Below, in pieces: positions 6,219 to 61,827 of a stretch of 64,000 bases of DNA. The stretch comes from Minisyncoccota bacterium. GTDB taxonomy: Bacteria > Patescibacteriota > Minisyncoccia > Phycocordibacterales > GWA1-40-21. A program made the translations under genes and the position numbers. Under the pieces are notes generated by a model. It saw nothing but the letters and a program-made list of their open reading frames with translations, searched no databases and was not told where the DNA came from. Every line of letters starts with the position of its first letter. The stretch's first letter is position 1. The DNA lies in assembly GCA_041663045.1 (NCBI GenBank), contig JBAZRH010000001.1, forward strand, positions 148,403 to 212,402, read 5' to 3'.

Positions 6219-6307
6219 GGGTTAATTATAACTCGCAAGAGGAGGAGATGCAATGTTTATAAGCGAACAAGATTCGCTCTCCCCACCCCACTTTCTTCAC
6301 TAAAAGC

Positions 6308-6420
6308 TCGCTCAGATATCCAATTTTGAGACCCGCATAATTTTCTGCTGAAAATTTGCTTAAGACTCGCACCGCCGTGCTCCGTAACTCTCAAAATTGA
6401 ATATCCTCGCTCGCTTACTT
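6308..6420. repeat. 113-nt palindromic structured element, copy A
   Basis: CTCGCTC-AGATATCCAATTTTGAGA-(58 nt core with CCGCATAA / TCTGCTGA / TTTGCT)-TCTCAAAATTGAATATC-CTCGCTCGCTTACT. A second copy at 49855-49967 lies in opposite orientation: same flanks and core motifs, but a completely different 17-bp stem that is again perfectly self-complementary. Confidence 0.6.
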
Positions 6421-6431
6421 GCAGAATGATT

Positions 6432-8318
6432 TTAGCTTTCCAAAACCGCTTTTATTCTTCTGACACCTGCACTCGAAGCTTCTTCCTTCACGATTTTGAA
6501 ATGGCCGAGCTCGCCGGTATTTTTGACATGAGGGCCACCGCAGAATTCAGTGCTGAAATCCCCTACTTTATAGACTTTTACAATATCTCCGTATTTTGAA
6601 AGATCGAAAGAAAGCGTGGTGACGATTTTCTTTGCTTCTTCTTTAGGTAATTCTTTCATTTCGACAGGGATTTTTTCGGCAATTTTTTGATTTACTAGAT
6701 TTTCAACTTCTTTCAATTTATCTGTCGGCACTTTTTCCGGCCAATTAAAGTCGAAACGCATCCTCTCGGCGGTGATATTACTTCCTTTTTGCGCGATTTC
6801 GCCTTTCAGCACATGTCTCAATGATGCCAAAAGTAAATGTGTCGCTGTATGATATTTCGTTTCCATTTCTCCTGTGCCAGCAAGCCCGCCTTTGAATTTC
6901 TGTTCGGAACCAGCTTTTGAGATTTCTTGGTGTTTTTTCATCTCTTCATTAAACTGAAATTCGATTTCTTTAAACTCCCAATCTGGAATTATTCTTCCTT
7001 TATTCCTTAATTCTTCAATTGCTAACTCAAATGGGAAACCATTATTCTGGTATAAATCAAAAAAGAATTCACCAGTTAGATTGCACGGCGTAAAACCATC
7101 ACTTACATCAACAGCAGTTAAAGCCTTTCCTGGTATGTAATTTTGCACTGTGATTTCTGTATTTAAAATCTTTAAGCCTTTTTGAAGAGTCTTCCTAAAT
7201 TTCTCATCCTCTTTTTTAATCACATCCAAAATCTCCCCTTCCTTTTCTTTAAGATAAGGATAAGCGTAATTCAATTTATCAATCACTATTTTTGCTAGAT
7301 TCAGAATCTCCTCTTTTGGAATACCTAGTTGATCTATAAATCTTATAGCTCTTCGCATTATTCTTCTCAAAACATATCCTGCCTCGGTATTTGACGGGTT
7401 TACTCCGTCGGCGATTATCATAACAGCCGAACGAATATGGTCTGCGACTATTCTCTCCGCTCTTTCGTCTTTTTTCTGCGCTTTATTTCTTATTTCAGTA
7501 AGGATTTCTTCAAAGATGTCAGTATCAAAAACTGTAGTCTTTCCTTGCATTACAACAGTAGTCCTTTCGAGTCCCATTCCGGTGTCTACATTTGGTTTTG
7601 CGAGTTTTTCGTATTTTCCATCGGCGGCTTTATTGAATTCCATGAAAACATTGTTCCAGATTTCAATGATTCGGCCGGATTTTACTAGGTCGGCAAACTT
7701 GCCGTTTATAGCGCCTTCTTCTGGGCGAGTATCATAAAACATTTCCGTGTCTCCACCGCAAGGGCCGACAGATCCTGCAATCCAAAAATTATCTTCTTTT
7801 CCGAGAGGAATTATCTTTATGTCCCCTTTTATAATTTCATCTGTACCTGCGACTTCGGCTTTGATATTGAATTTTGAGAAATTTTCTTTCCATATTGAAA
7901 TAGAGTCTTCATCGCGCGGTATGCCATCTTCACCTTTGAAAACCGTTACATAAAGCCTTTTCGGATCAAGTCCAAGGCCTTCTTCTCTACTCGTGAGAAA
8001 CTCAAGGCTCCAAGCAATAGATTCTTTTTTAAAATAATCTCCGAGCGACCAATTTCCCATCATTTCAAAAAAAGTAAGATGGCGATTGTCTCCTACCTCG
8101 TCTATATCACCTGTGCGAACGCATTTTTGGACATTTACTAGGCGGTTGCCAGCAGGGTGTTTCTGGCCAAGCAAATACGGCACGAGAGGTTGCATACCTG
8201 CTGTTGTGAATAGTGAAGAAGGGTCATTTTCAGGGATAAGAGATGCTGAAGGGATTATTTTATGTCCCCTTTTTTCAAAAAATTTTAAATATCTTTGTCG
8301 GATATCTGCGGATTTCAT
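6432..8318 (-). CDS. alaS: alanine--tRNA ligase (short form, no C-Ala domain)
   Basis: 628 aa; class II catalytic core (FTTAGMQPLVPYLLG, HLTFFEMMGNWSLGDYFK), plus editing-domain motifs HTATHLL and CGGPHV near the C-terminus; ends before the usual C-Ala domain. Confidence 0.85.
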   Translation of the reverse strand: MKSADIRQRYLKFFEKRGHKIIPSASLIPENDPSSLFTTAGMQPLVPYLLGQKHPAGNRLVNVQKCVRTGDIDEVGDNRHLTFFEMMGNWSLGDYFKKESIAWSLEFLTSREEGLGLDPKRLYVTVFKGEDGIPRDEDSISIWKENFSKFNIKAEVAGTDEIIKGDIKIIPLGKEDNFWIAGSVGPCGGDTEMFYDTRPEEGAINGKFADLVKSGRIIEIWNNVFMEFNKAADGKYEKLAKPNVDTGMGLERTTVVMQGKTTVFDTDIFEEILTEIRNKAQKKDERAERIVADHIRSAVMIIADGVNPSNTEAGYVLRRIMRRAIRFIDQLGIPKEEILNLAKIVIDKLNYAYPYLKEKEGEILDVIKKEDEKFRKTLQKGLKILNTEITVQNYIPGKALTAVDVSDGFTPCNLTGEFFFDLYQNNGFPFELAIEELRNKGRIIPDWEFKEIEFQFNEEMKKHQEISKAGSEQKFKGGLAGTGEMETKYHTATHLLLASLRHVLKGEIAQKGSNITAERMRFDFNWPEKVPTDKLKEVENLVNQKIAEKIPVEMKELPKEEAKKIVTTLSFDLSKYGDIVKVYKVGDFSTEFCGGPHVKNTGELGHFKIVKEEASSAGVRRIKAVLES

Positions 8319-21110: not shown

Positions 21111-22106
21111 TTAGTTTTTTTTTACTTCTTCAGCTTTTGCCTCTGCTCTTATTGAATCTTTATTTGTCAGCGTAGTGATGGGCCTGCTTTGTACTATATA
21201 AAATTTTCCTTTTTCAAAAGCCCATTCTATATCGCAAGGGAAACCATAATGATTCTCGATTTTCATTATTAAATCTGCGAATTCAAAGATTTGTTTTTCA
21301 GTGAGTACTTGAGATGATGCTTTTGGTTCAGAAATATCGATCCACTCATTGCCACCAGTTGAAACTCTATATAAACCTCTTGCTTGTGTTGAAATATTTG
21401 TATCGATAATTCTTCTCGGATCCTTCTCGACAACATATGAATCTGGTGTTATCTGTCCAGACACTATGGCTTCCCCAAGACCAAATCCAGCTTCTATAAT
21501 CATCTGATTTCTGTCTTCGGTAACAGGATGTACAGAGAAAGCTATACCGGAAACTTCAGAATTTACCATTTTTTGTATGACGACAGCGACTGAAATCTTT
21601 GTCTCGTGTAAATCTTTTTCAAATCTATAAAAAATAGCTCTCGGAGTGAAAAGTGATGCCCAGCAATGCTGAACTTTTTCTAAAACATTTTTCTCTTTAG
21701 TATTTAAATATGAATCAAGTTGTCCTGCCCAAGCGTTTTCTGCGCCGTCTTCTGCGGTGGCGGACGAACGGACGGCTACGAATTCGGTATCTAACTTTTT
21801 AAACTGCGACATTATCTCTTTCGCAATATTTTCTGGCATATCGGCGTTTTTGATAAGACTTTGAATTTTCTCTGAAGCGACTTCAACACTATTTATATCT
21901 TTGTGATTTACTGTATGTAAAACAGTATCTATTTCTTCAGAAAGATTTGCACCTTTTACGAATTCATCGAAAGTAGTTGAGAGGACGACAAAACCCGGCG
22001 GCACTGGTATTCCTGCCTGTGTCATTTCTCCAAGTGAGGCGCCTTTTCCACCGGCAATATCGGCATTGCTTTTATTCAATTCTCTGAAATGCAACGTTAA
22101 TTTCAT
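21111..22106 (-). CDS. PEP synthase / pyruvate-phosphate dikinase N-terminal ATP-grasp (nucleotide-binding) domain protein, stand-alone
   Basis: 331 aa; IAGGKGASLGEMTQAGIPVPPGFVV ... VAVRSSATAEDGAENAWAGQLDSY ... CDIEWAFEKGKFYIVQSRPIT covers Pfam PPDK_N end to end; no swivel or TIM-barrel domain; stop codon sits inside an A9 run. Confidence 0.85.
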   Translation of the reverse strand: MKLTLHFRELNKSNADIAGGKGASLGEMTQAGIPVPPGFVVLSTTFDEFVKGANLSEEIDTVLHTVNHKDINSVEVASEKIQSLIKNADMPENIAKEIMSQFKKLDTEFVAVRSSATAEDGAENAWAGQLDSYLNTKEKNVLEKVQHCWASLFTPRAIFYRFEKDLHETKISVAVVIQKMVNSEVSGIAFSVHPVTEDRNQMIIEAGFGLGEAIVSGQITPDSYVVEKDPRRIIDTNISTQARGLYRVSTGGNEWIDISEPKASSQVLTEKQIFEFADLIMKIENHYGFPCDIEWAFEKGKFYIVQSRPITTLTNKDSIRAEAKAEEVKKN

Positions 22107-46434: not shown

Positions 46435-49425
46435 TTATTTTATTATTTTAACAATTCCTTTATCCGCGTCCACCTCTACTATATCACCATCTTTTAAAAC
46501 TTTAGTGGCATTTTTTGTACCTATTATACAGGGTATATGTAACTCCCTTGATACAATGGCCGCATGGCAAGTGATACCTCCCTCATCTGTTATTATAGCA
46601 CCGGCTATTTTCATAGCAGGTACATAATCCGGCGTGGTCATAGAAGCAACCAAAATATCCCCCTTATTAATCTTAACAATATCTTTTGAAGATGAACATA
46701 CTTTTACAATTCCGGTTGTGATTCCAGAAGAAGCAGATCTACCTTTTAATTCTTTAACATTATCGCTTGATACAATAAGGTTGTATTTTTTAGCAAAAGC
46801 GATAGCTTTATCCCCAACAATCCATTCATATTTATGATCGTGAGATATTAGAATAGAATCTTTTGCTCTTTCTGATAACTCACCTTTAAGTCTATTATCC
46901 AAAACACCTGTTATGAGACTATCTTTAATTTCAAGTGGAGTAAGGAAATTAAAATGATCAGGGCTAATATCTAATCTCTTAGAAATCTCTGGTATAACCA
47001 CTAGTTGTAAGTGTGGGTGACTTTTTGTTTGAAATACTTTCTTTAAGTCTTGTAAATAGCCTAATTTGTGTGCAATATCTATAATTTTCTTTAATCTAGG
47101 TTCAAGATTTAATTTTATTAGTAATTCTTTTTGTCTTTGTCTTTTAAGTTTTAATTCGGCTGATCTTCTCTTTAATTCTTTTTCTGGGTCACCTTTTGAT
47201 AAGATATTTTTTATTTTATTTATAAAGTATTTTTTATCCCACAATACGCCCGTATTATATCCAAATGGTATTGATGAATATTCTTTAACATGTTTATCTA
47301 GCAATTTATCTATATTTGCAGGGATCTTTTTCAGAGAAATATTACCAGTCTTTTTAATCTTGTTAGAAATCTTTAGTATTTCTTCTTCCTCTTTACTTAA
47401 ATCATATGCATATGATAAAGATTCTATTAGAACAATCAGGTCATCCTTAGATATCTTCCTTTTTTCAACAGCGTCATCAAGCTCTTTTTCTAATGTAGGC
47501 ATTCCTACCCACCAGACAGGACAATTCTTTAAATGGAAATTTATATATCTCTCACAATATTCCGTATACTTCTCGGCGATGTATTTATTTGTTAGAGAAG
47601 AGAGTTTGTCTTTTGGAAAAGATCTTTCTATAAAGACCATTAGCGTGTCTTTCTGTTTTTCTGACCACTTTACTAGGTCATTTAACCACCCCTTTTCATC
47701 TAAACATTTATTGAGTATGATCTTTCCAATTGTTTCAAATTCACACTGAGAGTCTGTGGCCGTGGCGATATCTTCTCCTATCCAAGTATATATAGCCGAA
47801 TGAGCTCTTGCACCATACTCTTTTCTCATCTCATCTGTCCCGATATATTCTTGTGTAAAATTTGCAGGAAAAATCAGACAGGTCTTTTTAGGTCTTGCTC
47901 TTGAATTCAGTAGTTCACCGGATGGTTCGTATATATTATCTTCAGAAGCACTTACTAATCTTATCATTCCAGTATTTGCATCCACTTCCACCATATCGCC
48001 GTCTTTTAGTGTTTTGGATGCTGTTTGGGTGCCAATTATGCAAGGGATTTTCATTTCCCTTGATATAACAGAAGCATGACTCAATACGCCACCTTCATCC
48101 GTTATTATTGCAATGGCCTTTTGTAATAATGGCACATAGTCTGGTGTTGTTGAATGTGATACAAGAATATCTCCGCTTTGCATTTTTGGAAAATCTGTCT
48201 TTCTGTGTATTATACAGGCTTTTCCTGTAACTTTGCCTGGATAGGCTGTTTGGCCTTTTATTATCTTTGAATCATTTTCAACGTTTATGAGTTTAATCTT
48301 TTCTTTTGCTAATTTGATTATCGAACCGGAATATATTTCGGTACTCTTACCATCCGCATACATAATATAGCCAAGCTTTCTATCTTCTATAGTTTGTGAA
48401 TTCGCTCTAGTTGAAGTGTTTAACAAATTTATAATTTCCTTCGGTAAAAGATAGAAGATGTCTGCATGATTACTCAATCCGAGTCTTTTTGAAAGCTCTG
48501 TAAGAAAATCTTGAAGATATTGTGTATTTCTATAAAATCTTTCTGTTCTCCAGCTTCTAAAAAAGATAGCTTCCTGTAATATATTTATTAGATTTGGGAT
48601 TTTTGAATCTTCTCTTCCAAGGATTTCCTTGTATTTCTTTATTGACTCCGTTACCTTCTTTCTTTCATCTTTTATCTCCTTAAGCTTAGACTCTGGTTTT
48701 ATCTTAATCGCTGCCTCTACTTTTTCTAAGATTTCACTGGAAGAATAATACTGACCATCCATTGAAGCATTTTTTAGCCAACCAAACTCTAATATATGCT
48801 TTTCAATATCATCTTTAATATCTTTACCATCTCTTTTTTTAATTGCTATTTTAAGAATACTAATCTCCTCACTCTGTGAGGAACTCTGTTTCTCTGATGT
48901 GGAAATGACTTGAATAGCTTCGCTAGACTCTTGAGGGAGGACTTTGCGAATATTTGTAAAGATAGTATCTTCCAGATATTTCTCCATAGCCATCGGTAGT
49001 ATCATAAACGCCGAAGATTTCATTTGCTCTGAAGAGTAATCATCAAATAATTCTGCTAATTTTTTATCTTTTAATTCTGTAAAATTAGTTGTATTTATTT
49101 TCTTAATAATTTTCTCAATATTTGAATTAAGTTTGTAAGCTTTTTCAAACATCTCAATTATAAATTCTGGTCGTTTTTTGAATTCATTTAAAGATTTAAC
49201 AAGATTCTTATCCCAAGTGCTTTTCTCAAAAGCTAACTCTTGATCCAAATATATTATAGGGCTCATCTCATATGGAAAATCTAAGTCTTTGTTTGTATGG
49301 TGAGACAAACCTTCCCATAGCATATAAGTAAAAAGAGGAGTTCTGCTTCTCTTATGTATGAAATGCCACTTGAATTTTCCGAGCTTATCCAAGTCAAAAT
49401 TACCCTTATTTGCCGGCTCTATCAT
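46435..49425 (-). CDS. double-module PEP-utilising swivel domain protein (two N-domain + swivel units), paralog T; first gene of the array
   Basis: 996 aa; internal swivel approx nt 47960-48240 (ITDEGGVLSHASVISREMKIPCIIGTQTAS) and C-terminal swivel approx 46440-46720 ([30 protein letters not shown]). Confidence 0.8.
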   Translation of the reverse strand: MIEPANKGNFDLDKLGKFKWHFIHKRSRTPLFTYMLWEGLSHHTNKDLDFPYEMSPIIYLDQELAFEKSTWDKNLVKSLNEFKKRPEFIIEMFEKAYKLNSNIEKIIKKINTTNFTELKDKKLAELFDDYSSEQMKSSAFMILPMAMEKYLEDTIFTNIRKVLPQESSEAIQVISTSEKQSSSQSEEISILKIAIKKRDGKDIKDDIEKHILEFGWLKNASMDGQYYSSSEILEKVEAAIKIKPESKLKEIKDERKKVTESIKKYKEILGREDSKIPNLINILQEAIFFRSWRTERFYRNTQYLQDFLTELSKRLGLSNHADIFYLLPKEIINLLNTSTRANSQTIEDRKLGYIMYADGKSTEIYSGSIIKLAKEKIKLINVENDSKIIKGQTAYPGKVTGKACIIHRKTDFPKMQSGDILVSHSTTPDYVPLLQKAIAIITDEGGVLSHASVISREMKIPCIIGTQTASKTLKDGDMVEVDANTGMIRLVSASEDNIYEPSGELLNSRARPKKTCLIFPANFTQEYIGTDEMRKEYGARAHSAIYTWIGEDIATATDSQCEFETIGKIILNKCLDEKGWLNDLVKWSEKQKDTLMVFIERSFPKDKLSSLTNKYIAEKYTEYCERYINFHLKNCPVWWVGMPTLEKELDDAVEKRKISKDDLIVLIESLSYAYDLSKEEEEILKISNKIKKTGNISLKKIPANIDKLLDKHVKEYSSIPFGYNTGVLWDKKYFINKIKNILSKGDPEKELKRRSAELKLKRQRQKELLIKLNLEPRLKKIIDIAHKLGYLQDLKKVFQTKSHPHLQLVVIPEISKRLDISPDHFNFLTPLEIKDSLITGVLDNRLKGELSERAKDSILISHDHKYEWIVGDKAIAFAKKYNLIVSSDNVKELKGRSASSGITTGIVKVCSSSKDIVKINKGDILVASMTTPDYVPAMKIAGAIITDEGGITCHAAIVSRELHIPCIIGTKNATKVLKDGDIVEVDADKGIVKIIK

Positions 49426-49768: not shown

Positions 49769-49854
49769 AAAATAAGTTAAAAGTTATTAAGTTGTAAAGC
49801 TCATAAAGTTTACGATGAAAATATCTAAAAAGCAAATTAGTGTCTTTCTGCAAA

Positions 49855-49967
49855 GTAAACGAGCGAAGGCACAGCTTTTAAAAAGCATTGCACAGGCCGA
49901 CGGGCCGAGCATAGCAAAAAGTCAGCAGACTTTTATGCGCGGTTTTTAAAAGCTGTGCCGAGCGAGT
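49855..49967. repeat. 113-nt palindromic structured element, copy B (inverted relative to copy A)
   Basis: Reverse complement reads CTCGCTC-GGCACAGCTTTTAAAAA-(core with CCGCGCATAA / TCTGCTGA / TTTGCT)-TTTTTAAAAGCTGTGCC-TTCGCTCGTTTACT. Same architecture as 6308-6420, with a different but internally complementary stem. Confidence 0.6.
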
Positions 49968-49969
49968 CT

Positions 49970-51208
49970 TTATTCGTACCTGAGTGCCTCCATCGGACTC
50001 TTTTTTGAAGCTTGTCTTGCCGGATATATTCCGAATATAAGCCCGACCAAACTCGCTACAAGCAAACCGAGTATTGCTGCGCCTATTGGGAAAGTATATT
50101 GCCAGTTTAGCCCACCGACATTTTTTATCAATACCGTGGCGATTATTGAAAGCACTGAACCGAGTATTATTCCTATCAAACCTCCTGTTGCGGTAAGTAT
50201 CACAGCTTCAAGCAAGAATTGAGTGAGAATATCTTTATTTGTCGCTCCGATGGCTTTTCTCAAACCGATTTCTTTTGTCCTTTCGGTCACGGATACAAGC
50301 ATAATATTCATAATTCCAATACCTCCGACCACCAGTGAAATCGCCGCGACTGCCGACAAGAAAATCGTCAGCGTATTGAATACCGTGCCGAGTTTTTCCG
50401 CCACTTCCGCCGGAGTTGAGACATAAAAGTCGTCTTTTGTCGGATCGGTAATATTGTGCAAATTTCTCAAAGTGATTCTTATATCACTCGAGGTCTTTTC
50501 CAAATTAACTTCGGAATCCGTCTCGACTATAAGTCTATTAAAATATTTTGTGCCGGTCAGATATCTCTGGGCTGTGGTGTATGGTGTGAGAGCAGCTTCA
50601 TCGAAGCTTATAAAAGACGAGCTGCCCTTCTTTGGTAAAACCCCGATGACCTTGAATGTTGTGTTCTTAATCCTAATCTTCTGTCCAACAGCTTCGTCAT
50701 TTCCAAATAGCTTGTCTTTGGCTTTGTAGCCGAGGACGACCACAGTCGCTCCGCTTCGGACATCGTCGTCTGTATAGAAGACCCCTTTCTCTGGTTGCGC
50801 ATCGAATATTTTTTCTAAAAGCTCTGTACCACCAAAAATAGAAATGCCATATTTTTCATTTTGATATATGGCGTTTGCTGAACCGAAAACCACAGGCATT
50901 ACATATTGAGCGTTTGGAACATTTGTCTTTTGTTTTAGTGCATTCATTTCTCTCTCCTTCAATGAATCTGAAAATAAAGTCGATAGATCACTCATGCCCG
51001 ACGGTTCTTTACCAGGCAAAATAGCGATAGTTTTTGCACCAAGACCTTGTATTTGACCGATAATCAAATCTTTGGCTCCTTGCCCCAAAGACATTATCAA
51101 AATAATGGAGGTAATGCCGATCACTATACCGGTAATAGTAAGAGCCGAACGAGATTTATGCGTTCGTAGCCCTGTTATCGCTGTTTTTAAACTGAATTTT
51201 AATTTCAT
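49970..51208 (-). CDS. ABC transporter permease, MacB/FtsX-like
   Basis: 412 aa; N-terminal TM, large periplasmic domain, C-terminal FtsX-type 3-TM bundle (GIGIMNIMLVSVTERTKEIGLRKAIGA). Confidence 0.8.
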   Translation of the reverse strand: MKLKFSLKTAITGLRTHKSRSALTITGIVIGITSIILIMSLGQGAKDLIIGQIQGLGAKTIAILPGKEPSGMSDLSTLFSDSLKEREMNALKQKTNVPNAQYVMPVVFGSANAIYQNEKYGISIFGGTELLEKIFDAQPEKGVFYTDDDVRSGATVVVLGYKAKDKLFGNDEAVGQKIRIKNTTFKVIGVLPKKGSSSFISFDEAALTPYTTAQRYLTGTKYFNRLIVETDSEVNLEKTSSDIRITLRNLHNITDPTKDDFYVSTPAEVAEKLGTVFNTLTIFLSAVAAISLVVGGIGIMNIMLVSVTERTKEIGLRKAIGATNKDILTQFLLEAVILTATGGLIGIILGSVLSIIATVLIKNVGGLNWQYTFPIGAAILGLLVASLVGLIFGIYPARQASKKSPMEALRYE

Positions 51209-53577: not shown

Positions 53578-53651
53578 TGGGCAATACAGGGTTCGAACCT
53601 GTGACCTCACGAATGTGAATCGTGCGCTCTAACCAACTGAGCTAATTGCCC
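53578..53651 (-). tRNA. tRNA-Val (anticodon CAC)
   Basis: Minus-strand GGGCAAT TA GCTC AGTTGGTTA GAGC G CACGA TTCACAT TCGTG AGGTC ACAGG TTCGAAC CCTGT ATTGCCC A. Clean cloverleaf; CCA not encoded. Confidence 0.8.
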
Positions 53652-53730
53652 GTACGATAATTTATATCACAAAAGGCTTCTAAATTCTATTTTGATTTTT
53701 AGTATTAAATAAGCTATACTCCTCCGAGTT

Positions 53731-53803
53731 GGGCCGCTAGCTCATTTGGTAGAGCGCATCCATGGCATGGATGAGGCGACCGGTTCGATCCCGGTGCGGT
53801 CCA
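53731..53803 (+). tRNA. tRNA-Ala (anticodon GGC)
   Basis: GGGCCGC/GCGGTCC acceptor stem with G3:U70 Ala identity pair; anticodon arm CATCC-ATGGCAT-GGATG; T-arm ACCGG TTCGATC CCGGT. Confidence 0.8.
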
Positions 53804-53992
53804 CAAGCAAAAATCATTATCGATTTTTGTGGACCGCAGCAAGCAAACTGCTTTGCTTGCGACCGGGATCGAAAGGATTTTTTAATATTTTTTAGAAATT
53901 CTGATTTTTAAAAAATCAAGAAATCACCCGCTGCGGTAGGCAGAGATACCCGGTGCAGTTCACATTTCGTGATACACAAGATACGTTTATTT

Positions 53993-54063
53993 GGGCCTAT
54001 AGTCTAGTGGTACGACGCGTCATTCGCATTGACGAAGCGGCGGTCCGACTCCGCCTAGGTCCA
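53993..54063 (+). tRNA. tRNA-Ala (anticodon CGC), 71 nt
   Basis: GGGCCTA/TAGGTCC acceptor with G3:U70; anticodon arm CGTCA-TTCGCAT-TGACG; T-arm GGCGG TCCGACT CCGCC; D-arm slightly irregular. Confidence 0.65.
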
Positions 54064-54229
54064 CAAAGGTTAAAAATCGCAACTGCTTGCGATTTTTTAC
54101 ACTTTGTGGAAGACGCAGCTATATTTTTGTTTTATGTAATAAAGGCGAAAATAGCGAGCCGGGGTCGCGAGATTTTTCTGTCAGGAAAAATACTTGTGAC
54201 CACAAGATTGTGATACAATATCGATCATA

Positions 54230-54303
54230 CGGGGTGTCGTATAGTGGTAGTATACACGTTTCGGGTACGTGAAGCCTGAGTTCGATTCTCAGCACCCCGA
54301 CCA
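54230..54303 (+). tRNA. tRNA-Pro (anticodon CGG), CCA encoded
   Basis: CGGGGTG/CACCCCG acceptor with C1:G72 (bacterial Pro identity), anticodon arm CACGT-TTCGGGT-ACGTG, T-arm CTGAG TTCGATT CTCAG, 3' ACCA. Confidence 0.7.
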
Positions 54304-54328
54304 ATTTAAAGAATATCTAAGGTCTTTT

Positions 54329-54514
54329 TTATTTACCCTTTTTCGTCTTTCTTTTTGATGTTAACTCTTCCTTGTTTTCTTGTATAAATTTTTTACCTCT
54401 ATCACAATAAATACAAGGACCACCATCTTGGCAGTACTGGCACTGGTCTTTTTCTTGCACTGGGATATTTTGACTCCCTATTTCAAATTCTGGTAAAAAT
54501 GGTTGATTTTCCAT
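54329..54514 (-). CDS. small Cys-rich protein (zinc-ribbon-like, 61 aa)
   Basis: CQYCQDGGPCIYCDRGKK: four Cys in CxxC...CxxC arrangement, basic C-terminal tail. Confidence 0.4.
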   Translation of the reverse strand: MENQPFLPEFEIGSQNIPVQEKDQCQYCQDGGPCIYCDRGKKFIQENKEELTSKRKTKKGK

Positions 54515-54554
54515 AAAATTAAAACAAATACTTATAACTGCTTGTATTATAACA

Positions 54555-54588
54555 CAAAAAATTGGGCGCGAACTAAAGGTTCGCGCCC
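54555..54588 (-). terminator. rho-independent terminator for the 54608-54892 gene
   Basis: perfect 10-bp stem GGGCGCGAAC-taaag-GTTCGCGCCC; on the minus strand followed by a U-run. Confidence 0.55.
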
Positions 54589-54607
54589 GTAAATACCTTC
54601 CTCCTTA

Positions 54608-54892
54608 TTATTTCGCCATCTCCATAATCAGTCGGCCATTGCCACCCTTCAGATAAAATTTCCTTGAACCGATGTAGATATGTTCGTATAGACTACGAAT
54701 CTCTATCCACACCCGTTCTGATATACGAGGATGGGCGCCCGCACCGCTTTGTGCCACATCAATGGCCATAATTAATACAGACTTATGGTCATCTTTTACC
54801 GTGGGCGATGCTTGTACTTCCGTCTTGAAATCTTTTTCAGAAAACGAAAGTACAGTTCTTGGCTTCAACTCGACACGGACTTTTTCTGCCAT
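54608..54892 (-). CDS. hypothetical protein (94 aa; start re-set to MAEKVRVEL preceded by AAAGGAG RBS)
   Basis: ORF-track Met is 12 codons upstream, but a strong SD (AAAGGAG) sits 6 nt before the internal ATG at 54892. Confidence 0.45.
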   Translation of the reverse strand: MAEKVRVELKPRTVLSFSEKDFKTEVQASPTVKDDHKSVLIMAIDVAQSGAGAHPRISERVWIEIRSLYEHIYIGSRKFYLKGGNGRLIMEMAK

Positions 54893-54980
54893 ACCTACTC
54901 CTTTGTTGAGGTTAGGATCAAAGAACAATTCTAGGATCCTTTTATACTTTACAAGATGTTAAAATAAAGTCAAACATATT

Positions 54981-55775
54981 TTAAATGATGAAGTACCTGA
55001 TTATTATAAACAGTATGATTATAACGAAAAGTGTTATTTGCCAATTTCTAACAATCATACTGAAAAAATCTATCATTTTATTATAAATATTTGTAACTAT
55101 TGGATATTTGAATAAGCCACCGGAGCTTGAAGCTTGGTATTTTGTCTCTGCCCCAAGGACCTGCCCGACCATTTCACTGTTTGTCTTGGTCGTTGCTGTT
55201 TGTCCGGTTGAAGGATCACTTGCTACAACACTTTGACTAGCTACTTCTGGCTTTTTATATGTTTCAATCTTATCAGCCAAAGCATTCGCAACTACATCTA
55301 TTTTCTGCACCACATTTTCCGCTATCTTTTGAGTATTTTCTTTTACGACTTCCAATGTTATTGGTTTTGTTATAGAGAGAGATGTTCTATCACTTTCAAA
55401 GGAAAGAAGTGAACTTGTACTTACGCCGTTTATCTCCGTAATCTTTATTTGTACTGAATGTCGGCCCTCCAAAGCTTTCCACGGTCCACTTATTTCTAAC
55501 AAGCTATCTTTTGTAGATGTAAAATTTACTTTCGAATTTAATTCATCATCTACGAAGATAGATGCGATGCCAGAAAAAGTAATGTCAGAATGATTTTGTA
55601 TAGCTCCAAATATTTTCACCAAATCTTGATCATTTATATTGATAGATGAATACCAAACACTCGATAAGATACCAGCATTTATTTGATTTGTGTTTGCAAA
55701 AACCTCTCTTGTAAGAAAAATAATAGAGATGAACCAAATGTATAATAAAGCCCTTTTCATTTTATTCGGATTCAA
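54981..55775 (-). CDS. secreted/membrane-anchored hypothetical protein (N-terminal signal peptide, C-terminal TM helix)
   Basis: 264 aa; MKRALLYIWFISIIFL signal-like N-terminus, Ser/Thr-rich middle, C-terminal hydrophobic ITLFVIIILFIII. Confidence 0.45.
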   Translation of the reverse strand: MNPNKMKRALLYIWFISIIFLTREVFANTNQINAGILSSVWYSSININDQDLVKIFGAIQNHSDITFSGIASIFVDDELNSKVNFTSTKDSLLEISGPWKALEGRHSVQIKITEINGVSTSSLLSFESDRTSLSITKPITLEVVKENTQKIAENVVQKIDVVANALADKIETYKKPEVASQSVVASDPSTGQTATTKTNSEMVGQVLGAETKYQASSSGGLFKYPIVTNIYNKMIDFFSMIVRNWQITLFVIIILFIIIRYFII

Positions 55776-56598
55776 TAGGAATTATAATCGCGTCTTCTGA
55801 AGAATAATTTGTACTACTTGCCATAAATGTTCTCTCTTTAAACACAAGCTGATATATGATATAAGCCCCAAGCGCTATCGCTAAAATTACAAGAAGGGCA
55901 TTTAAGAATGCTGGGTGTTTTTTACTATATTTTATTGTAAACCTAATCAAGAAGAACAAGATGGTTATTGCTATTAATACAGAGACAATAATAATTACAA
56001 TTTTCTTTGTATTTGTGTTATTAGCAAATTGAGTCATAGCTCCCAAGACTTTTGTGCCTGTCGATGTCGGAATATTATTTGAGATATTTTCAGATTCAGA
56101 AACTTTTTCTACTCTAGGACTTGCATAATCTTGAACGATAAAAATCCCCTCTTTGCCTTTATAAGTACCAGAGGCAATACCCGTACCCATTTCTGTATAT
56201 GAATTTTTTAAAAGATTTTCCCTGTGCGTCGGCGAATTCATCCATGCGTCTGTCACTTCTTTTGACTCGTTAAAGTTAATCGCCAAATTTTCTCCTGCAT
56301 AATCATATTTATAACCGACAAGCTCAAGCCAATACCATGGGGTCTTGCCATCTGGACTTACATGAGAAAAATATTGATTGCCCGCCATATCCTCGGCTTT
56401 CATCTGTGCGGCTTTTGATAAGAGCGAATCTACCTTTAACACAGCCAAATTGTTTTGTTGTCTTTCTTGATTTGTTAGGTCTGAGAGTGCACTGACGAGG
56501 ACTGTTGCGGGCTGAAAAGACCCATTCATAAATCCCCCGATTAAAATCAGTAATTCAACACAGAGGACTATTGTCGCAATTTTTCTTAGATTGTTCAT
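55762..56598 (-). CDS. CAP-domain (SCP/PR1-like, YkwD-type) extracytoplasmic protein with C-terminal TM segments
   Basis: 278 aa; ...YFSHVSPDGKTPWYWLELVGYKYDYAGENLAINF...WMNSPTHRENLLKNSYTEMGTGIASG matches CAP-domain conserved blocks. Confidence 0.6.
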   Translation of the reverse strand: MNNLRKIATIVLCVELLILIGGFMNGSFQPATVLVSALSDLTNQERQQNNLAVLKVDSLLSKAAQMKAEDMAGNQYFSHVSPDGKTPWYWLELVGYKYDYAGENLAINFNESKEVTDAWMNSPTHRENLLKNSYTEMGTGIASGTYKGKEGIFIVQDYASPRVEKVSESENISNNIPTSTGTKVLGAMTQFANNTNTKKIVIIIVSVLIAITILFFLIRFTIKYSKKHPAFLNALLVILAIALGAYIIYQLVFKERTFMASSTNYSSEDAIIIPIESE

Positions 56599-56696
56599 AC
56601 TATGTATAGATTATAACATAAGTATTTTTTTATAAAATCAATCAATGTTGATTGAAGTAAAATATTTTTTATGCTAATCTATCCCGAGTTAGATAA

Positions 56697-56769
56697 GGGC
56701 CTGTAGCTCATCTGGTAGAGCGCCTCATTTGCAATGAGGAGGTAAGCGGTTCGAGCCCGCTCAGGTCCA
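56697..56769 (+). tRNA. tRNA-Ala (anticodon TGC)
   Basis: GGGCCTG/CAGGTCC acceptor with G3:U70; anticodon arm CCTCA-TTTGCAA-TGAGG; T-arm AGCGG TTCGAGC CCGCT. Confidence 0.8.
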
Positions 56770-57087: not shown

Positions 57088-58527
57088 ATGAAAATTACCG
57101 ATATTAAAAATGACGAGCTTAAATATATGGTTGAGAGGATTGAGCCATATTTTGCTTCGTCTATTATAATTAGAGGGATGGTTGATAAGAAAAACGTCGA
57201 GAATATTCTTGAATGGAGAGCTGGAGTAAGATGGTTATATACTAATAATTATTTTTTTGCTAAAACGAGTGATCAAAAGATTGCTAAGGAAGATTTACAA
57301 AATAAATTCAAAAAAGGAGGGAATATTTATACTGGTAATCTAATAAAGAAATGTTTTGAACTTGGCAATCAACTAATTGAAGTCGCAAAGTCCATTGAGG
57401 TAATTACAAGTAAAGAAAACTTAGCCACCGAAGAAATGTATGATTGTCTAAAAAGATACTTGGATTCTGCTAGTAATTATATGATTTTTCAAAATCTGGT
57501 TTTGTTTGAAGACCCAATCTCGGAATTAGCCCGCAATACAGTAAAGAAATATGCAAAAAGTGAAAAGGAAGAAAATGAACTTCTTGGACTTATAACTACT
57601 GCTAGCCATCTAACTGGCGGGGAAAAAGAGCAGGATGATTTTCTAAGATTAGGTATTAAGAAAGCCACTGATAAGGAAATTGACGAACATGCTAGAAAAT
57701 ATGGTTGGCTAGCAATAAGATTCTTTGTTGGGGAACCGTGGACTAAAAATGATGTACTAGGGCGACTTTCTAGAACTGATTCTGTATCTGCTGAGATAGA
57801 ACTCAAAAAAAGGATTGAGTATCGGGAAGGAATTGAGAAAAAAATCATAAAGGCGATAGATGTTTTTAGCAAAGAAGACAAAGATATTGTTCAGCTCATT
57901 AGAGATGTTGTATATCTACGTACCCAGAGGACAGACTTCTTTCAGGAGTCGTCGTATTACGTACAAACTTTAGTAAAGGAAATTGCTATTAATTTTGGCG
58001 TTTCTTATTACGATCTTCTCTATTTGAGTGTACCAGAAGTCTTACAAGCACTGAAGGATAAGTTCAATGTAATAGGAAGCATTGAGAAAAGAAAGAAAGG
58101 CTTTGTCGTTTTTTTTGATTACGATGAAGATCATATTCTTGAAGGATCTGAAGCAAAAAAATTCGTCGATGAAAGACCGATATTAAATCATAGAACTTTG
58201 GAGGTGAAGGAATTGAAGGGCAGTATTGGATATAAAGGCAAGGCAAAAGGAAGCGTATGTATTGTTAAAACGGCCCATGACAATTCTAAAGTTAAAGAGG
58301 GGGATATTATTGTTGCGATTATGACTACGCCCAACTTTATCCCAGCATTAGAAAAAGCATCTGCATTTATTACTGATGAAGGCGGAATTACTTGTCATGC
58401 TGCAATTATAGCTCGGGAAATGAAAAAGCCCTGTATTATTGGTACTAAAAATGCTACCCAAGTTTTAAAAGATGGAGATTTGGTTGAGGTGGATGCTGAT
58501 AAGGGGGTGGTGAGAATAATTAAATAA
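57088..58527 (+). CDS. PEP-utilising-enzyme swivel domain protein, outlying paralog U
   Basis: 479 aa; C-terminal [52 protein letters not shown]; VYLRTQRTDFF motif in N-domain. Confidence 0.85.
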   Translation: MKITDIKNDELKYMVERIEPYFASSIIIRGMVDKKNVENILEWRAGVRWLYTNNYFFAKTSDQKIAKEDLQNKFKKGGNIYTGNLIKKCFELGNQLIEVAKSIEVITSKENLATEEMYDCLKRYLDSASNYMIFQNLVLFEDPISELARNTVKKYAKSEKEENELLGLITTASHLTGGEKEQDDFLRLGIKKATDKEIDEHARKYGWLAIRFFVGEPWTKNDVLGRLSRTDSVSAEIELKKRIEYREGIEKKIIKAIDVFSKEDKDIVQLIRDVVYLRTQRTDFFQESSYYVQTLVKEIAINFGVSYYDLLYLSVPEVLQALKDKFNVIGSIEKRKKGFVVFFDYDEDHILEGSEAKKFVDERPILNHRTLEVKELKGSIGYKGKAKGSVCIVKTAHDNSKVKEGDIIVAIMTTPNFIPALEKASAFITDEGGITCHAAIIAREMKKPCIIGTKNATQVLKDGDLVEVDADKGVVRIIK

Positions 58528-60465: not shown

Positions 60466-61827
60466 TCAAACCAAGGACTTTTTGGCGAGGGTTTTGCGAT
60501 GATATTTGATGGCAAATCTATGAGCTTCGTTATTTGCGAGTAGAATGTCGTTTGAATATTTGGAAGTGATAGTTTTATCCCCCAATATCGCCTTTGGCCT
60601 ATGTCTTTCATCTTTAAGTACCGAAACCACCTCCAACTTGGCTATACGATAGCCAAGTAAACGAGATACGACTTCCCTAGCGACTTTGATCTGGGCTTTT
60701 CCTCCATCCACAACTATTATTTGTGGAAAAGCCCATTCTTCATGAGCGAGTCTTCTCTCCAATATTTCTTTTAGACCGGCAATATCATTTTGCTTACTTT
60801 CTCTTATTTTGAATTTTCTATATCCATTTTTTGCTGGCTCGCCGTCTTCTAGCACTACCATAACGCCGACATTGGCTGTGCCACTGATGTGGGCAATGTC
60901 GTAGGCTTCGATACGGAGGATTTTTCTTTCCTCAAGGTTCGACCTTTCTTGGGATTTAAGGTCGAACCTTTTCCCAGAGAAATCCTCCGCTTTTAGGAGA
61001 GCGACATCCTGAATATGATTTAATGCGAAAATTGTCTTTTTAATTTCTCCAGCTTTTTCAAATTTTTGCTCTTTCGCCAAGGCCTTCATCTCTTTTTCAA
61101 GATTTTTTATGATTTTTGTCTTTTTACCTTCAAAAAATAAAATAATATTTTTAATTATTTTTTTATAATCAACTTTTGAAATGCTCCCGTCGCAAGCTCC
61201 GGGGCAAAGTCCGATTTGTTTATTGAAGCAAGGCTCGCCTTGGTTTGGAGTGCATCTATCACGAAATGGAAAAATTTTGCGAACAATTTTCACAGCTTCT
61301 TTGAGTTGGGTGCTGTGTGGAAAAGGTCCAAAAATACGCTGGACTGGCTCCTCAAGGTTCGACCTTTTTTGAGATTTAAGGTCGAACCTTTTCCAGCTAG
61401 TCATATTTGATTTATCAAGGAGAGACCTTGGATCTGCAAAAAGGTCTCTCCTTGGAAAATCTAAACTTCTTCCTCTTTCTATCAAAACTCTTGGAAAGTC
61501 CTCTTTTGTAATAATGACAAAATTATAACTTTTATCATCTTTTTCTTTTGTATTGTATTTCGGTTTATGTTTTTTTATAAGTTCGGCTTCTAGGATAAGT
61601 GCTTCAAGGATAGAGTCAGTCTTTTGAAAAGTGATTTTGTCCGCCTTAAAAACCATATCTACAATAAGCGGACCGCGAGTGGCGATAAGATCATTACTAA
61701 AATAGCTTTTTACCCTATCGCGAAGAGATGTCGCTTTTCCAATATAAAAAATCTCCCTCCCCTTTTTGAAGAAATAAATGCCAGGCGTATCGGGTAGTTT
61801 GTGTTTTTTTAAATCTTGACTTTGCAT
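60466..61827 (-). CDS. uvrC: excinuclease ABC subunit C (short form, GIY-YIG + endonuclease core) carrying two in-frame palindromic repeat insertions
   Basis: 453 aa; GIY-YIG N-terminus (GIYFFKKGREIFYIGKATSLRDRV), IFGPFP, RIEAYDIAHISG endonuclease motif. Confidence 0.8.
   Translation of the reverse strand: MQSQDLKKHKLPDTPGIYFFKKGREIFYIGKATSLRDRVKSYFSNDLIATRGPLIVDMVFKADKITFQKTDSILEALILEAELIKKHKPKYNTKEKDDKSYNFVIITKEDFPRVLIERGRSLDFPRRDLFADPRSLLDKSNMTSWKRFDLKSQKRSNLEEPVQRIFGPFPHSTQLKEAVKIVRKIFPFRDRCTPNQGEPCFNKQIGLCPGACDGSISKVDYKKIIKNIILFFEGKKTKIIKNLEKEMKALAKEQKFEKAGEIKKTIFALNHIQDVALLKAEDFSGKRFDLKSQERSNLEERKILRIEAYDIAHISGTANVGVMVVLEDGEPAKNGYRKFKIRESKQNDIAGLKEILERRLAHEEWAFPQIIVVDGGKAQIKVAREVVSRLLGYRIAKLEVVSVLKDERHRPKAILGDKTITSKYSNDILLANNEAHRFAIKYHRKTLAKKSLV
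60931..60974. repeat. 44-nt palindromic repeat inside uvrC, copy 1
   Basis: CTCAAGGTTCGACCTTTCTTGGGATTTAAGGTCGAACCTTTTCC; internal inverted repeat AAGGTTCGACCTT / AAGGTCGAACCTT; translated in frame as KRFDLKSQKRSNLEE. Confidence 0.7.
61351..61394. repeat. 44-nt palindromic repeat inside uvrC, copy 2 (exactly 420 nt from copy 1)
   Basis: CTCAAGGTTCGACCTTTTTTGAGATTTAAGGTCGAACCTTTTCC, 3 mismatches to copy 1; translated in frame as KRFDLKSQERSNLEE. Confidence 0.7.

Follow-up and report, generated by a model that had tools for sequence, protein, structure and literature searches.

Dispersed rod-like palindromic repeats with a conserved branched tip in genomes of Patescibacteria

Introduction

Two intergenic copies of a short element lie 43 kb apart in a 64,000-nucleotide stretch of a Minisyncoccota bacterium contig (hereafter the window), and they raise the question why the two arms of their long stem differ in sequence between the copies yet stay paired in each, i.e. 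whether the structure is that of an RNA kept by its host or of a piece of DNA that moves. A preliminary description, made from the letters of the window, took the covariation as the mark of a structured RNA (a terminator or attenuator module, or a small RNA), named as further options a DNA site recognised by its shape and a mobile palindromic element family that diversifies its arms, and proposed a covariance-model search and folding of each copy as checks. The setting lends weight to the question, as the ultra-small CPR bacteria (Patescibacteria) represent a large share of bacterial diversity, their non-coding DNA is almost unexplored and, to our knowledge, very few mobile elements are known from these organisms. 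The repeat described here is undescribed and missing from Rfam.

Results

The two window copies and their gene setting

Both copies were recovered within one base of the positions first assigned to them, copy A at 6304-6416 (+) and copy B at 49854-49969 (-), with a conserved core common to both. In copy A, the 5' base motif AAGCTCGCTC (6304-6313, +) faces its partner at 6406-6416; the minus strand here reads GAGCGAGCUU, in which G-C pairs alternating with tandem G.A pairs are possible. It is followed by the 5' arm of the long stem P1, AGATATCCAATTTTGAGA (6314-6331, +), the P2 hairpin CGCAUAAUUUUC UGCU GAAAAUUUGCU (6334-6360, +; one U is bulged and UGCU forms the loop), the P3 region (6361-6388, +) and the 3' arm of P1, TCTCAAAATTGAATATC (6389-6405, +). 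P3 comprises P3a (6365-6366 with 6384-6385), then an internal loop UC/UCC, and P3b (6369-6372 with 6377-6380) with the loop CGCC. The 3' base motif CTCGCTCGCTT and the adjoining ACTTGCAGAATG take up 6406-6428 (+), and the latter stretch is also found with copy B and with the copy at locus L028. Copy B, read on the minus strand, has the same order: 5' base motif AGACTCGCTC (49960-49969) directly behind the macB stop codon, P1 5' arm GGCACAGCTTTTAAAAA (49943-49959), P2 hairpin CGCAUAAAAGUC UGCU GACUUUUUGCU (49913-49939), P3 region AUGCUC GGCC CGUC GGCC UGUGCAAUGC (49885-49912), P1 3' arm TTTTTAAAAGCTGTGCC (49868-49884), and 3' base motif TTCGCTCGTTTACT with the shared tail TTGCAGAAAGAC (49842-49867). 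The heptamer CTCGCTC occurs at 6307-6313 and 6406-6412 (+) and at 49960-49966 (-). Aligned, the copies have the core motifs CGCATAA, TCTGCTGA, TTTGCT and CTCG in common, and outside the long stem they conserve CTCGCTC on the 5' side and YTCGCTCGYTTACTTTGCAGAA on the 3' side.

P1 indeed differs between the copies while being paired in both; the perfect complementarity that had been ascribed to each is confined to copy B (17/17), as the arms of copy A contain one C.A mismatch on the plus strand, equivalent to a G.U pair on the minus strand. P2 and P3, two further covarying helices missing from the preliminary description, have likewise changed and remained paired, with AAUUUUC/GAAAAUU in A vs AAAAGUC/GACUUUU in B around the same UGCU loop, and GCAC-CGCC-GUGC in A vs GGCC-CGUC-GGCC in B. 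Overall, the two copies are 58% identical over the modelled 81-86 columns. Folding gave z = -4.9 and -5.1, with 0/200 shuffles equal for each copy, and the folds of the copies have stabilities of -33 to -51 kcal/mol. A 20-base core pattern is found twice in the window against 0.01 expected by chance, and a covariance model run with filters off scored A at 102 bits (E 1e-27) and B at 54 bits (E 2e-13), with no third copy in the window, the next match (16 bits) being the opposite strand of A. A coding role was rejected, as manual small-ORF reading of A and B led to unrelated peptides with a frame shift between the copies. A 16-codon ORF (MFISEQDSLSPPHFLH*) at 6254-6304 (+), preceded by AGGAGGAG, enters the 5' base of A; all neighbouring genes are on the other strand, and the ORF is probably due to chance.

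Both copies lie behind the stop codons of minus-strand genes, as had been noted. The alanyl-tRNA synthetase gene (628 aa, 6432..8318, -) adjoins copy A with its stop codon, its ORF ending at 6432, about 12-15 nt from the rod; a protein of a Candidatus Paceibacterota MAG matches its product at 100% identity. The gene for a MacB/FtsX-type ABC permease (412 aa, 49970..51208, -) ends in a stop codon at 49970-49972, 3 nt from copy B. The copies are in opposite orientations though both neighbours of each are minus-strand genes, and between them neither gene direction nor GC skew changes. The gaps that hold them, 213 and 201 nt, are among the largest in this very compact genome. At A and B, no promoter or terminator consensus was matched beyond chance, and terminator-like sites (stem plus U-tract) number 0. 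Transposase families were absent among 16 window ORFs tested; ten of these, away from the copies' immediate gene setting, were all ordinary, with no transposase, recombinase or reverse transcriptase. Rfam 15 at its gathering threshold returned five tRNAs and nothing else over the whole window.

A family across Patescibacteria genomes

A scan of GTDB species genomes with the 20-base core pattern, all stems being left free, yielded at least 120 loci. Among the matches listed, nearly all are in Patescibacteria/CPR MAGs, the exceptions being four chance matches and one Nitrospira-titled contig; the titles listed cover Paceibacterota, Nomura-, Kaiser-, Yanofsky-, Zambryski-, Taylor-, Vogel- and Wildermuthbacteria, WWE3, Minisyncoccia and many Saccharibacteria. 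Carriage by phages was rejected, as the five viral-contig matches are false positives in a coding gene without arms and without P3. Nearly every listed match has its own complementary arms around the core, of 12 to more than 40 pairs. We note that one 'TPA_asm: uncultured Candidatus Saccharibacteria' record (L018) encodes a PNPase closest to those of named Paceibacterota relatives; the Saccharibacteria label of such MAG records may hence be unreliable, and the taxonomic spread of the repeat needs re-derivation from marker genes.

The covariance-model search detected 116 copies in 766 kb of the loci listed, with 2-3 copies at several loci. In carrier genomes the repeat is common, at about one copy per 30-40 kb in the loci seen here. 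It also recovered copies that deviate from the exact pattern, in which P2 has GGA/UCC or ACA/UGU for GCA/UGC. The stems are kept: in the alignment of the 116 copies, which was itself fitted to the structure and in which the scan pattern had fixed 20 core bases, standard pairs make up 93.7% of cells vs 44-55% when partners are slid. The conserved structure thus extends beyond the two window copies, as all 28 of the 28 modelled pairs display double changes at values reached by no shuffle, although these counts are not independent events since the copies are related by descent. A plain MAFFT alignment, in which the arms were out of register, allowed RNAalifold to recover P2 alone, and was replaced by the model with its hand-set structure. 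Rfam searches gave noise matches only for A and B (E up to 10) and tRNA and rRNA only for eleven variant loci, and searches of full-text literature, among them one for the core sequence, yielded no description of the repeat.

Copy A is 83% identical to the L054 and L028 copies and copy B 85% identical to that of L043, vs 58% between A and B, and therefore the window copies belong to different old subfamilies shared between genomes. It had been argued that a transposed miniature element (MITE) would have identical arms. This objection falls away, since identical-arm copies exist in other genomes: near-identical 155-nt copies occur at several loci (L033, L041 and L064, contigs of one MAG, and also L093 and L095). 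Elements of different subfamilies also stand as inverted pairs about 30 nt apart (L009 2451-2665); further inverted pairs of this kind were observed at L005 882-1074, L074 175-373, L086 182-413 and L087 1425-1608.

Anatomy of the family and its variants

Elements are 85-155 nt long and encode nothing. Conservation is concentrated in a branched tip of 57 nt, where P1, P2 and P3 meet in a three-way junction; here, P2 has the consensus GCA-U-AANNNUC UGCU GANNNUU-UGC with the bulged U and UGCU loop, and P3 reads CUC-[4-5 GC-rich pairs, loop CGUC]-U(N)CG with a short outer helix and an internal loop. P1, the long stem, is often extended by further helices; in many subfamilies, an internal loop followed by an extra outer helix lengthens the rods to about 155 nt. 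Helix boundaries repeatedly show a mismatch motif, which in the orientation of the preliminary description (hereafter the reading orientation) is CUC[helix]U(N)CG and flanks P3b and in several subfamilies the P1 base too; the CTCGCTC flanks of A and B are this motif. Its opposite strand, CG(N)A[helix]GAG, allows tandem G.A pairs. Some subfamilies share outer ends (GAATTACGAAA...TTTCGTAATTC and TCTTTCAAAAGTC...GACTTTTGAAAGA), while family-wide the outer arms are least conserved.

Some copies contain an additional hairpin, or a domain of roughly 110 nt, in P3. In a long form seen at L003 6457-6660, L038, L052 and L112, the P1 inner arms, P2 and the junctions are unchanged and P3 is replaced by a conserved domain of about 110 nt (...CAAGAAAACAA...CCGCAAACUCG...CCUCAAACAGUGCU...).

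A tRNA-linked variant was found at seven loci, where tRNA 3'-end sequence follows the reverse-complement strand of the element; it extends from the T-loop over the acceptor strand and mostly reaches CCA. In two of these (L094 744-859 and L109 3101-3261), an intact tRNA gene about 20-55 nt upstream, the element and a 21-nt direct repeat follow each other, the repeat being the tRNA 3' end from C56 of the T-loop to CCA. Here, the T-loop and stem recur in inverted form as the 5' arm of the element (GGGATTCG with tRNA-Arg, GGACTCG with tRNA-Leu), which demonstrates that arms can be matched to local sequence. tRNA-end sequences also abut the L049, L070, L084 and L098 copies, with no tRNA gene in the sequence covered (730 nt for L070; the L084 and L098 copies are at locus ends). 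A different small insert, without the P2/P3 core, follows tRNA-Lys at L094 1084-1205 and is in turn followed by a duplicate tRNA 3' end (GTCCCAGGCGACTCACCA). That the element is itself a tRNA or tmRNA gene was rejected: ARAGORN calls none at any element, and the stems are too long for such a gene, despite the likeness of the P2 loop CUGCUGA to an anticodon loop. Similarly, the 'GGGATTCGGTCA' subtype was considered as a tmRNA 5' end; ARAGORN and Rfam returned nothing, and the sequence is the complement of the duplicated tRNA 3' end.

Filled and empty sites

The element has been inserted: relatives lack it at the corresponding sites. At the macB site of L212 and L213 (MacB 90% identical, same downstream 76-aa gene), a 72-nt gap reads TAA-gaaacc-TTTACTTT, with neither a hairpin nor CTCGCTC; in L211 (96% identical), TTTACATTT is preceded by a plain hairpin of 14 bp with UUCG as its loop, and the window reads TAA-aga-[CTCGCTC...rod...TTCGCTCG]-TTTACTTT. 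From these states, the entire 113-nt rod including its flanks is extra DNA in the window; the CTCGCTC flanking repeats, absent from the empty macB site, recur at other loci. The relatives of the window reach protein identities of at most 96% and have intergenic DNA that is hardly alignable, so the comparison of the A and B sites is one of gap content and not base by base. Plain hairpins of similar sequence were observed at different loci of two relatives, L211 3726-3757 and L212 20303-20357 (GGGTGGATTTTGCC-ttcg-GGCAAAATCCACCC and AAGGGTGGTTTGC-gaag-CAAACCACCCTT); these may be related to the rods but lack the core, or may form a simple palindromic repeat of their own.

A conserved position after alaS was rejected, since the model finds 0 copies in 478 kb around the alaS genes of 80 metagenome relatives (AlaRS 45-72% identical). 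In L206, the closest relative with a long contig (AlaRS 78%), the order of alaS, a 403-aa gene and a 459-aa gene is kept and a 130-aa ORF takes the slot held by copy A in the window, and L212 has a 33-nt gap after alaS. In L207, a 79% relative, the start of an element is present some 60 nt behind alaS; its orientation matches that in the window, its base motif is similar, and the contig end truncates it.

Downstream of pnp, the relatives L208 and L210 (PNPase 88% identical to that of L018) have terminators with A-run/stem/T-run architecture, AAAAATAGCCAT-ttaa-ATGGCTATTTTT and AAAAACCTCCGGAA-ta-TTCCGGAGGTTTTT. L018 reads AAAAAAGCGCAGTAAC-[element]-GTTACTGCGCTTTTTT, with the element where the loop would be; its outer hairpin has the terminator architecture of the relatives and a stem sequence of its own. 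At the same place, L209 (PNPase 90%) carries a copy of a different subfamily with the outer arm AAAAATCCCTGG. Hence, at this one traceable locus, and not family-wide, the element sits at the tip of a terminator-like hairpin. Homologous arms including outer ends recur between unrelated genes in different genomes.

Genomic placement

The typical site is an intergenic gap a few bases behind a stop codon, in either orientation, with the copy nearer the upstream stop than the downstream start and gaps to both neighbours often under 15 nt. Between co-directional genes, 38 copies are sense and 25 antisense in the reading orientation; 16 copies lie between convergent and nine between divergent genes. 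The 150 flanking ORFs fall into 157 Pfam families of at most three members each, with ordinary housekeeping functions; there is no enrichment that would point to an associated gene, and no transposase, integrase/recombinase or reverse transcriptase among them. Six copies of one subfamily have well-defined ends, and these show no direct repeat indicative of a target-site duplication.

Outer arms as terminators in general were also rejected. Terminator-like A/T runs at the outer ends occur in about a fifth of copies, and the excess of outer 3' T-runs is weak (19/88 family members vs 12/88 control windows); a terminator origin of the outer arms is borne out at the pnp locus and is not a rule. Together with the lack of a stem and U-tract at A and B, this weighs against the terminator or attenuator first suggested.

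Origin of the arm differences

Two causes of the arm differences emerge, based on the insertion seen at the tip of a hairpin and on subfamily divergence with pairing kept. Firstly, the outer arms can be a locus-specific stem of the host: in one subfamily (L018, L030, L063), the inner ~13 nt of the arms are nearly identical while the outer arms have nothing in common, yet are perfectly paired. A host-stem origin is not the whole story, as A and B carry their own conserved base motif and A/T-run ends are seen in the above fifth of copies only. Secondly, element-borne arms have visibly diverged between subfamilies while staying paired. Among A, L028 and L054, 3-4 of 8 middle arm positions differ, with matching changes in the partner arm, and L041 vs L033 shows an identical 2-nt indel in both arms, for which arm-to-arm copying appears an easier explanation than two independent mutations. 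In replication, quasi-palindrome correction copies one arm from the other.

Strand and pairing evidence

The covariation demonstrates a kept hairpin and is not proof of an RNA function. Arm-to-arm copying, or selection on a DNA hairpin, explains it as well as selection on RNA does. The generic standard for structured RNAs is compensatory change that preserves helices and passes through G.U intermediates on the strand that is transcribed; here, compensation is strong, G.U pairs amount to 0-3% and there is no link to the direction of transcription, in a set of copies that are not independent lineages. Specifically, G.U pairs number 0-3 per pair among about 100 sequences, with none in P2. A comparison of G.U vs A.C pairs by transcription (28:16 vs 9:10) was discarded as not significant and biased by arm calling.

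The reverse complement of the reading orientation folds better for 60 of the 71 whole elements, and for the arms alone, with the core replaced by a tetraloop, that strand is better in 70 vs 18 elements. The preference is the same regardless of the direction of the flanking genes (26/31 one way and 14/18 the other), and consequently the fold belongs to one strand of the element rather than to the host message. This argues against a cis-acting RNA role in the host as the reason for conservation, and fits a strand-specific single-stranded stage, of DNA or RNA, in the element's own propagation. With few G.U pairs, paired indels and a better-folding strand that ignores host transcription, the initial equation of covariation with structured RNA is not supported in that form. 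A replication-strand bias as in IS200/IS605 was rejected, with copies distributed 51:32 against GC skew and A and B opposite within one skew domain; a bias this weak does not clearly favour a single-stranded DNA route tied to replication.

Discussion

Based on the family-wide structure, the empty sites and the strand preference, we propose that A and B are non-autonomous, inserted, imperfect-palindrome rod elements dispersed in CPR genomes, and that they would spread via a folded strand, a reading to which we assign roughly even chances. Of the three options originally named, the mobile palindromic family with diversifying arms is thus the best fit. The element would spread, or would once have spread, as a folded single strand, with the conserved tip recognised by a putative enzyme supplied in trans. 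The active strand would be the reverse complement of the reading orientation, where the imperfections are G.A and G.U, not C.U and A.C. The needs of the tip-recognition step may keep the arms paired, possibly together with arm-to-arm copying in replication. Once inserted, a rod would be co-transcribed with its neighbours, and the upstream message would gain a highly stable hairpin at its 3' end, which may serve as a 3' barrier or processing site, probably as a by-product and not the cause of conservation.

Certain observations count against this proposal. No transposase, recombinase or reverse transcriptase adjoins any copy or appears among the ten window ORFs, target-site duplications are not seen at well-defined ends, the A and B sites have no filled/empty counterpart at nucleotide level, and A/T runs like those of terminators flank about a fifth of copies. 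The extra hairpins and the 110-nt domain in P3 are what would be expected of a functional RNA, and the copy after alaS in L207 could mean long retention and therefore a benefit to the host. The strong tip conservation across distant MAGs could also reflect a host function; it is partly a matter of ascertainment, as the scan pattern fixed 20 core bases. In a bolder version, which we consider speculative and doubtful, the repeat is a gene-less mobile element moving as a folded strand, whose three-way-junction tip is read by a putative CPR enzyme and which inserts at the tips of hairpins, terminators among them, and nests. The mobile unit would then be whatever is paired, so that captured host stems would be carried onward and the element would grow by nesting; the recurrence of CUC[helix]U(N)CG boundaries in layer after layer would follow from such growth.

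The principal alternative, which we regard as unlikely, is a cis-acting RNA kept by the host, i.e. a terminator, a barrier to 3' exonucleases or an RNase III site that punctuates operon transcripts. The placement of copies a few bases behind stops and nearer the upstream stop would suit such a role, as would the very stable folds (z about -5), the L018 element within a hairpin of pnp-terminator architecture, the presence of a copy after alaS both in the window and in the 79% relative L207, and the added stems of some copies, which are also found in functional RNAs. However, orientation relative to transcription is nearly random (38:25), so the conserved terminal and internal loops would be complemented in about 40% of transcripts, the better-folding strand is indifferent to host direction, the U-tract is absent at A and B and in most of the family, G.U pairs are almost absent, and the same sites in relatives lack the element.

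Quite improbable, in our assessment, are genes for trans-acting small RNAs, or an RNA stage of retro type, produced from the reverse-complement strand, with a protein-binding tip and variable arms that would serve just to close the molecule. Tandem G.A and G.U pairs do lie on one strand in every context, the three-way junction is conserved and has variable extra domains, and in the tRNA-linked copies the reverse-complement strand runs with the tRNA gene, L094 and L109 ending in a tRNA 3'-end with CCA. Nevertheless, the copies fill their gaps to within a few bases of both neighbours, leaving no room for a promoter, which also speaks against the discrete small RNA gene of the preliminary description; there is no reverse transcriptase among the 150 neighbours, and 30-40 near-perfect arm pairs are unusual for a small RNA.

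Finally, we consider it very improbable that the rods are recombination sites that act as folded single strands, as integron attC sites do, or other targets of site-specific recombination: structure kept over stem sequence, asymmetric unpaired bases, a length in the attC range and the two tRNA-linked copies flanked by the 21-nt tRNA 3'-end repeat, as in integrative elements, are reminiscent of such sites, yet RYYYAAC/GTTRRRY is missing (the ends read CTCGCTC.../...TCGCTCG), the tip is conserved here and variable in attC, copies occur singly and in both orientations between housekeeping genes, at a distance of 43 kb in the window, and form no cassette arrays, and no integrase adjoins them. For reference, attC sites are defined by R''/R' core sites (RYYYAAC ... 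GTTRRRY), have a variable tip and form cassette arrays of one orientation. L208 and L209 do have Phage_integrase ORFs, but this gene usually lies next to rpsO, whether or not the element is there.

Comparison to known repeats places the rods next to several families. REP units are 20-40 nt long with a conserved 5' GTAG and a conserved stem, REPINs have a variable tip, the associated RAYT proteins are Y1 HUH transposases, and REPs are thought to move as single-stranded hairpins via an enzyme encoded elsewhere. The rods resemble them as short non-coding palindromes dispersed in intergenic regions after gene ends, in either orientation and with compensatory hairpins; they differ by a conserved branched 57-nt tip, variable stems and the lack of a GTAG-type head, and no RAYT gene was seen among the flanking and window ORFs. 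ERIC/IRU sequences of enterobacteria, imperfect palindromes of about 127 nt in transcribed intergenic regions, have in common with the rods both orientations, a conserved centre, internal insertions in some copies and species-specific positions, whereas sequence and host group are unrelated. We know of no transposase for ERIC, nor of any description of a three-way-junction tip or of nesting into terminator hairpins there. A MITE is recognised by conserved terminal inverted repeats, by target-site duplications and by a parent IS. Correia/NEMIS of Neisseria and RPE of Rickettsia resemble the rods as non-autonomous, multi-copy elements of 100-160 nt that form long hairpins and are transcribed together with adjacent genes, RPE also occurring in reduced genomes; unlike MITEs, the rods have no target-site duplication (six copies) and no parent IS among neighbouring ORFs. 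IS1397 and ISKpn1 target the loops of REP units, and class C group II introns insert just after terminators. This landing at palindromes or terminators is similar to the pnp locus, with two subfamilies at one site, but those elements are autonomous, 1.4-2 kb long and carry their own enzymes, unlike the rods with 85-155 nt and no gene. The best-supported classification is accordingly that the rods are comparable to REP/REPIN, ERIC and MITEs and have the defining features of none. What is unusual about them is the conserved branched tip, the strand-specific imperfections and the insertion at a terminator tip at at least one locus.

The repeat is a concrete case for separating 'structure kept' from 'RNA functional', and it can mislead searches for RNA motifs, because its very strong covariation comes without proof of an RNA function. 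In metagenome bins, it can furthermore mark lineages and recent changes of the genome, and a tip-recognising factor, if found, could reveal a mechanism of hairpin-targeting insertion.

Further features of the window

Additional observations concern other parts of the window. Pyruvate phosphate dikinase-like domains are spread over three ORFs (21111-22106, 46435-49425 and 57088-58527), one with PPDK_N and two with the PEP-utilisers mobile domain. Five tRNA genes are clustered at 53578-56769, and at about 54-58 kb the GC skew changes sign and the genes are no longer uniformly on the minus strand. Two adjacent hairpins at 61342-61464, inside the span of a UvrC-like ORF (60466..61827), have the common frame CAAGG-NNNNN-ACCTT ... 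AAGGT-NNNNN-CCTTG with the middles TTCGA vs AGAGA, a second two-copy case in the window of stems that have changed but remained paired.
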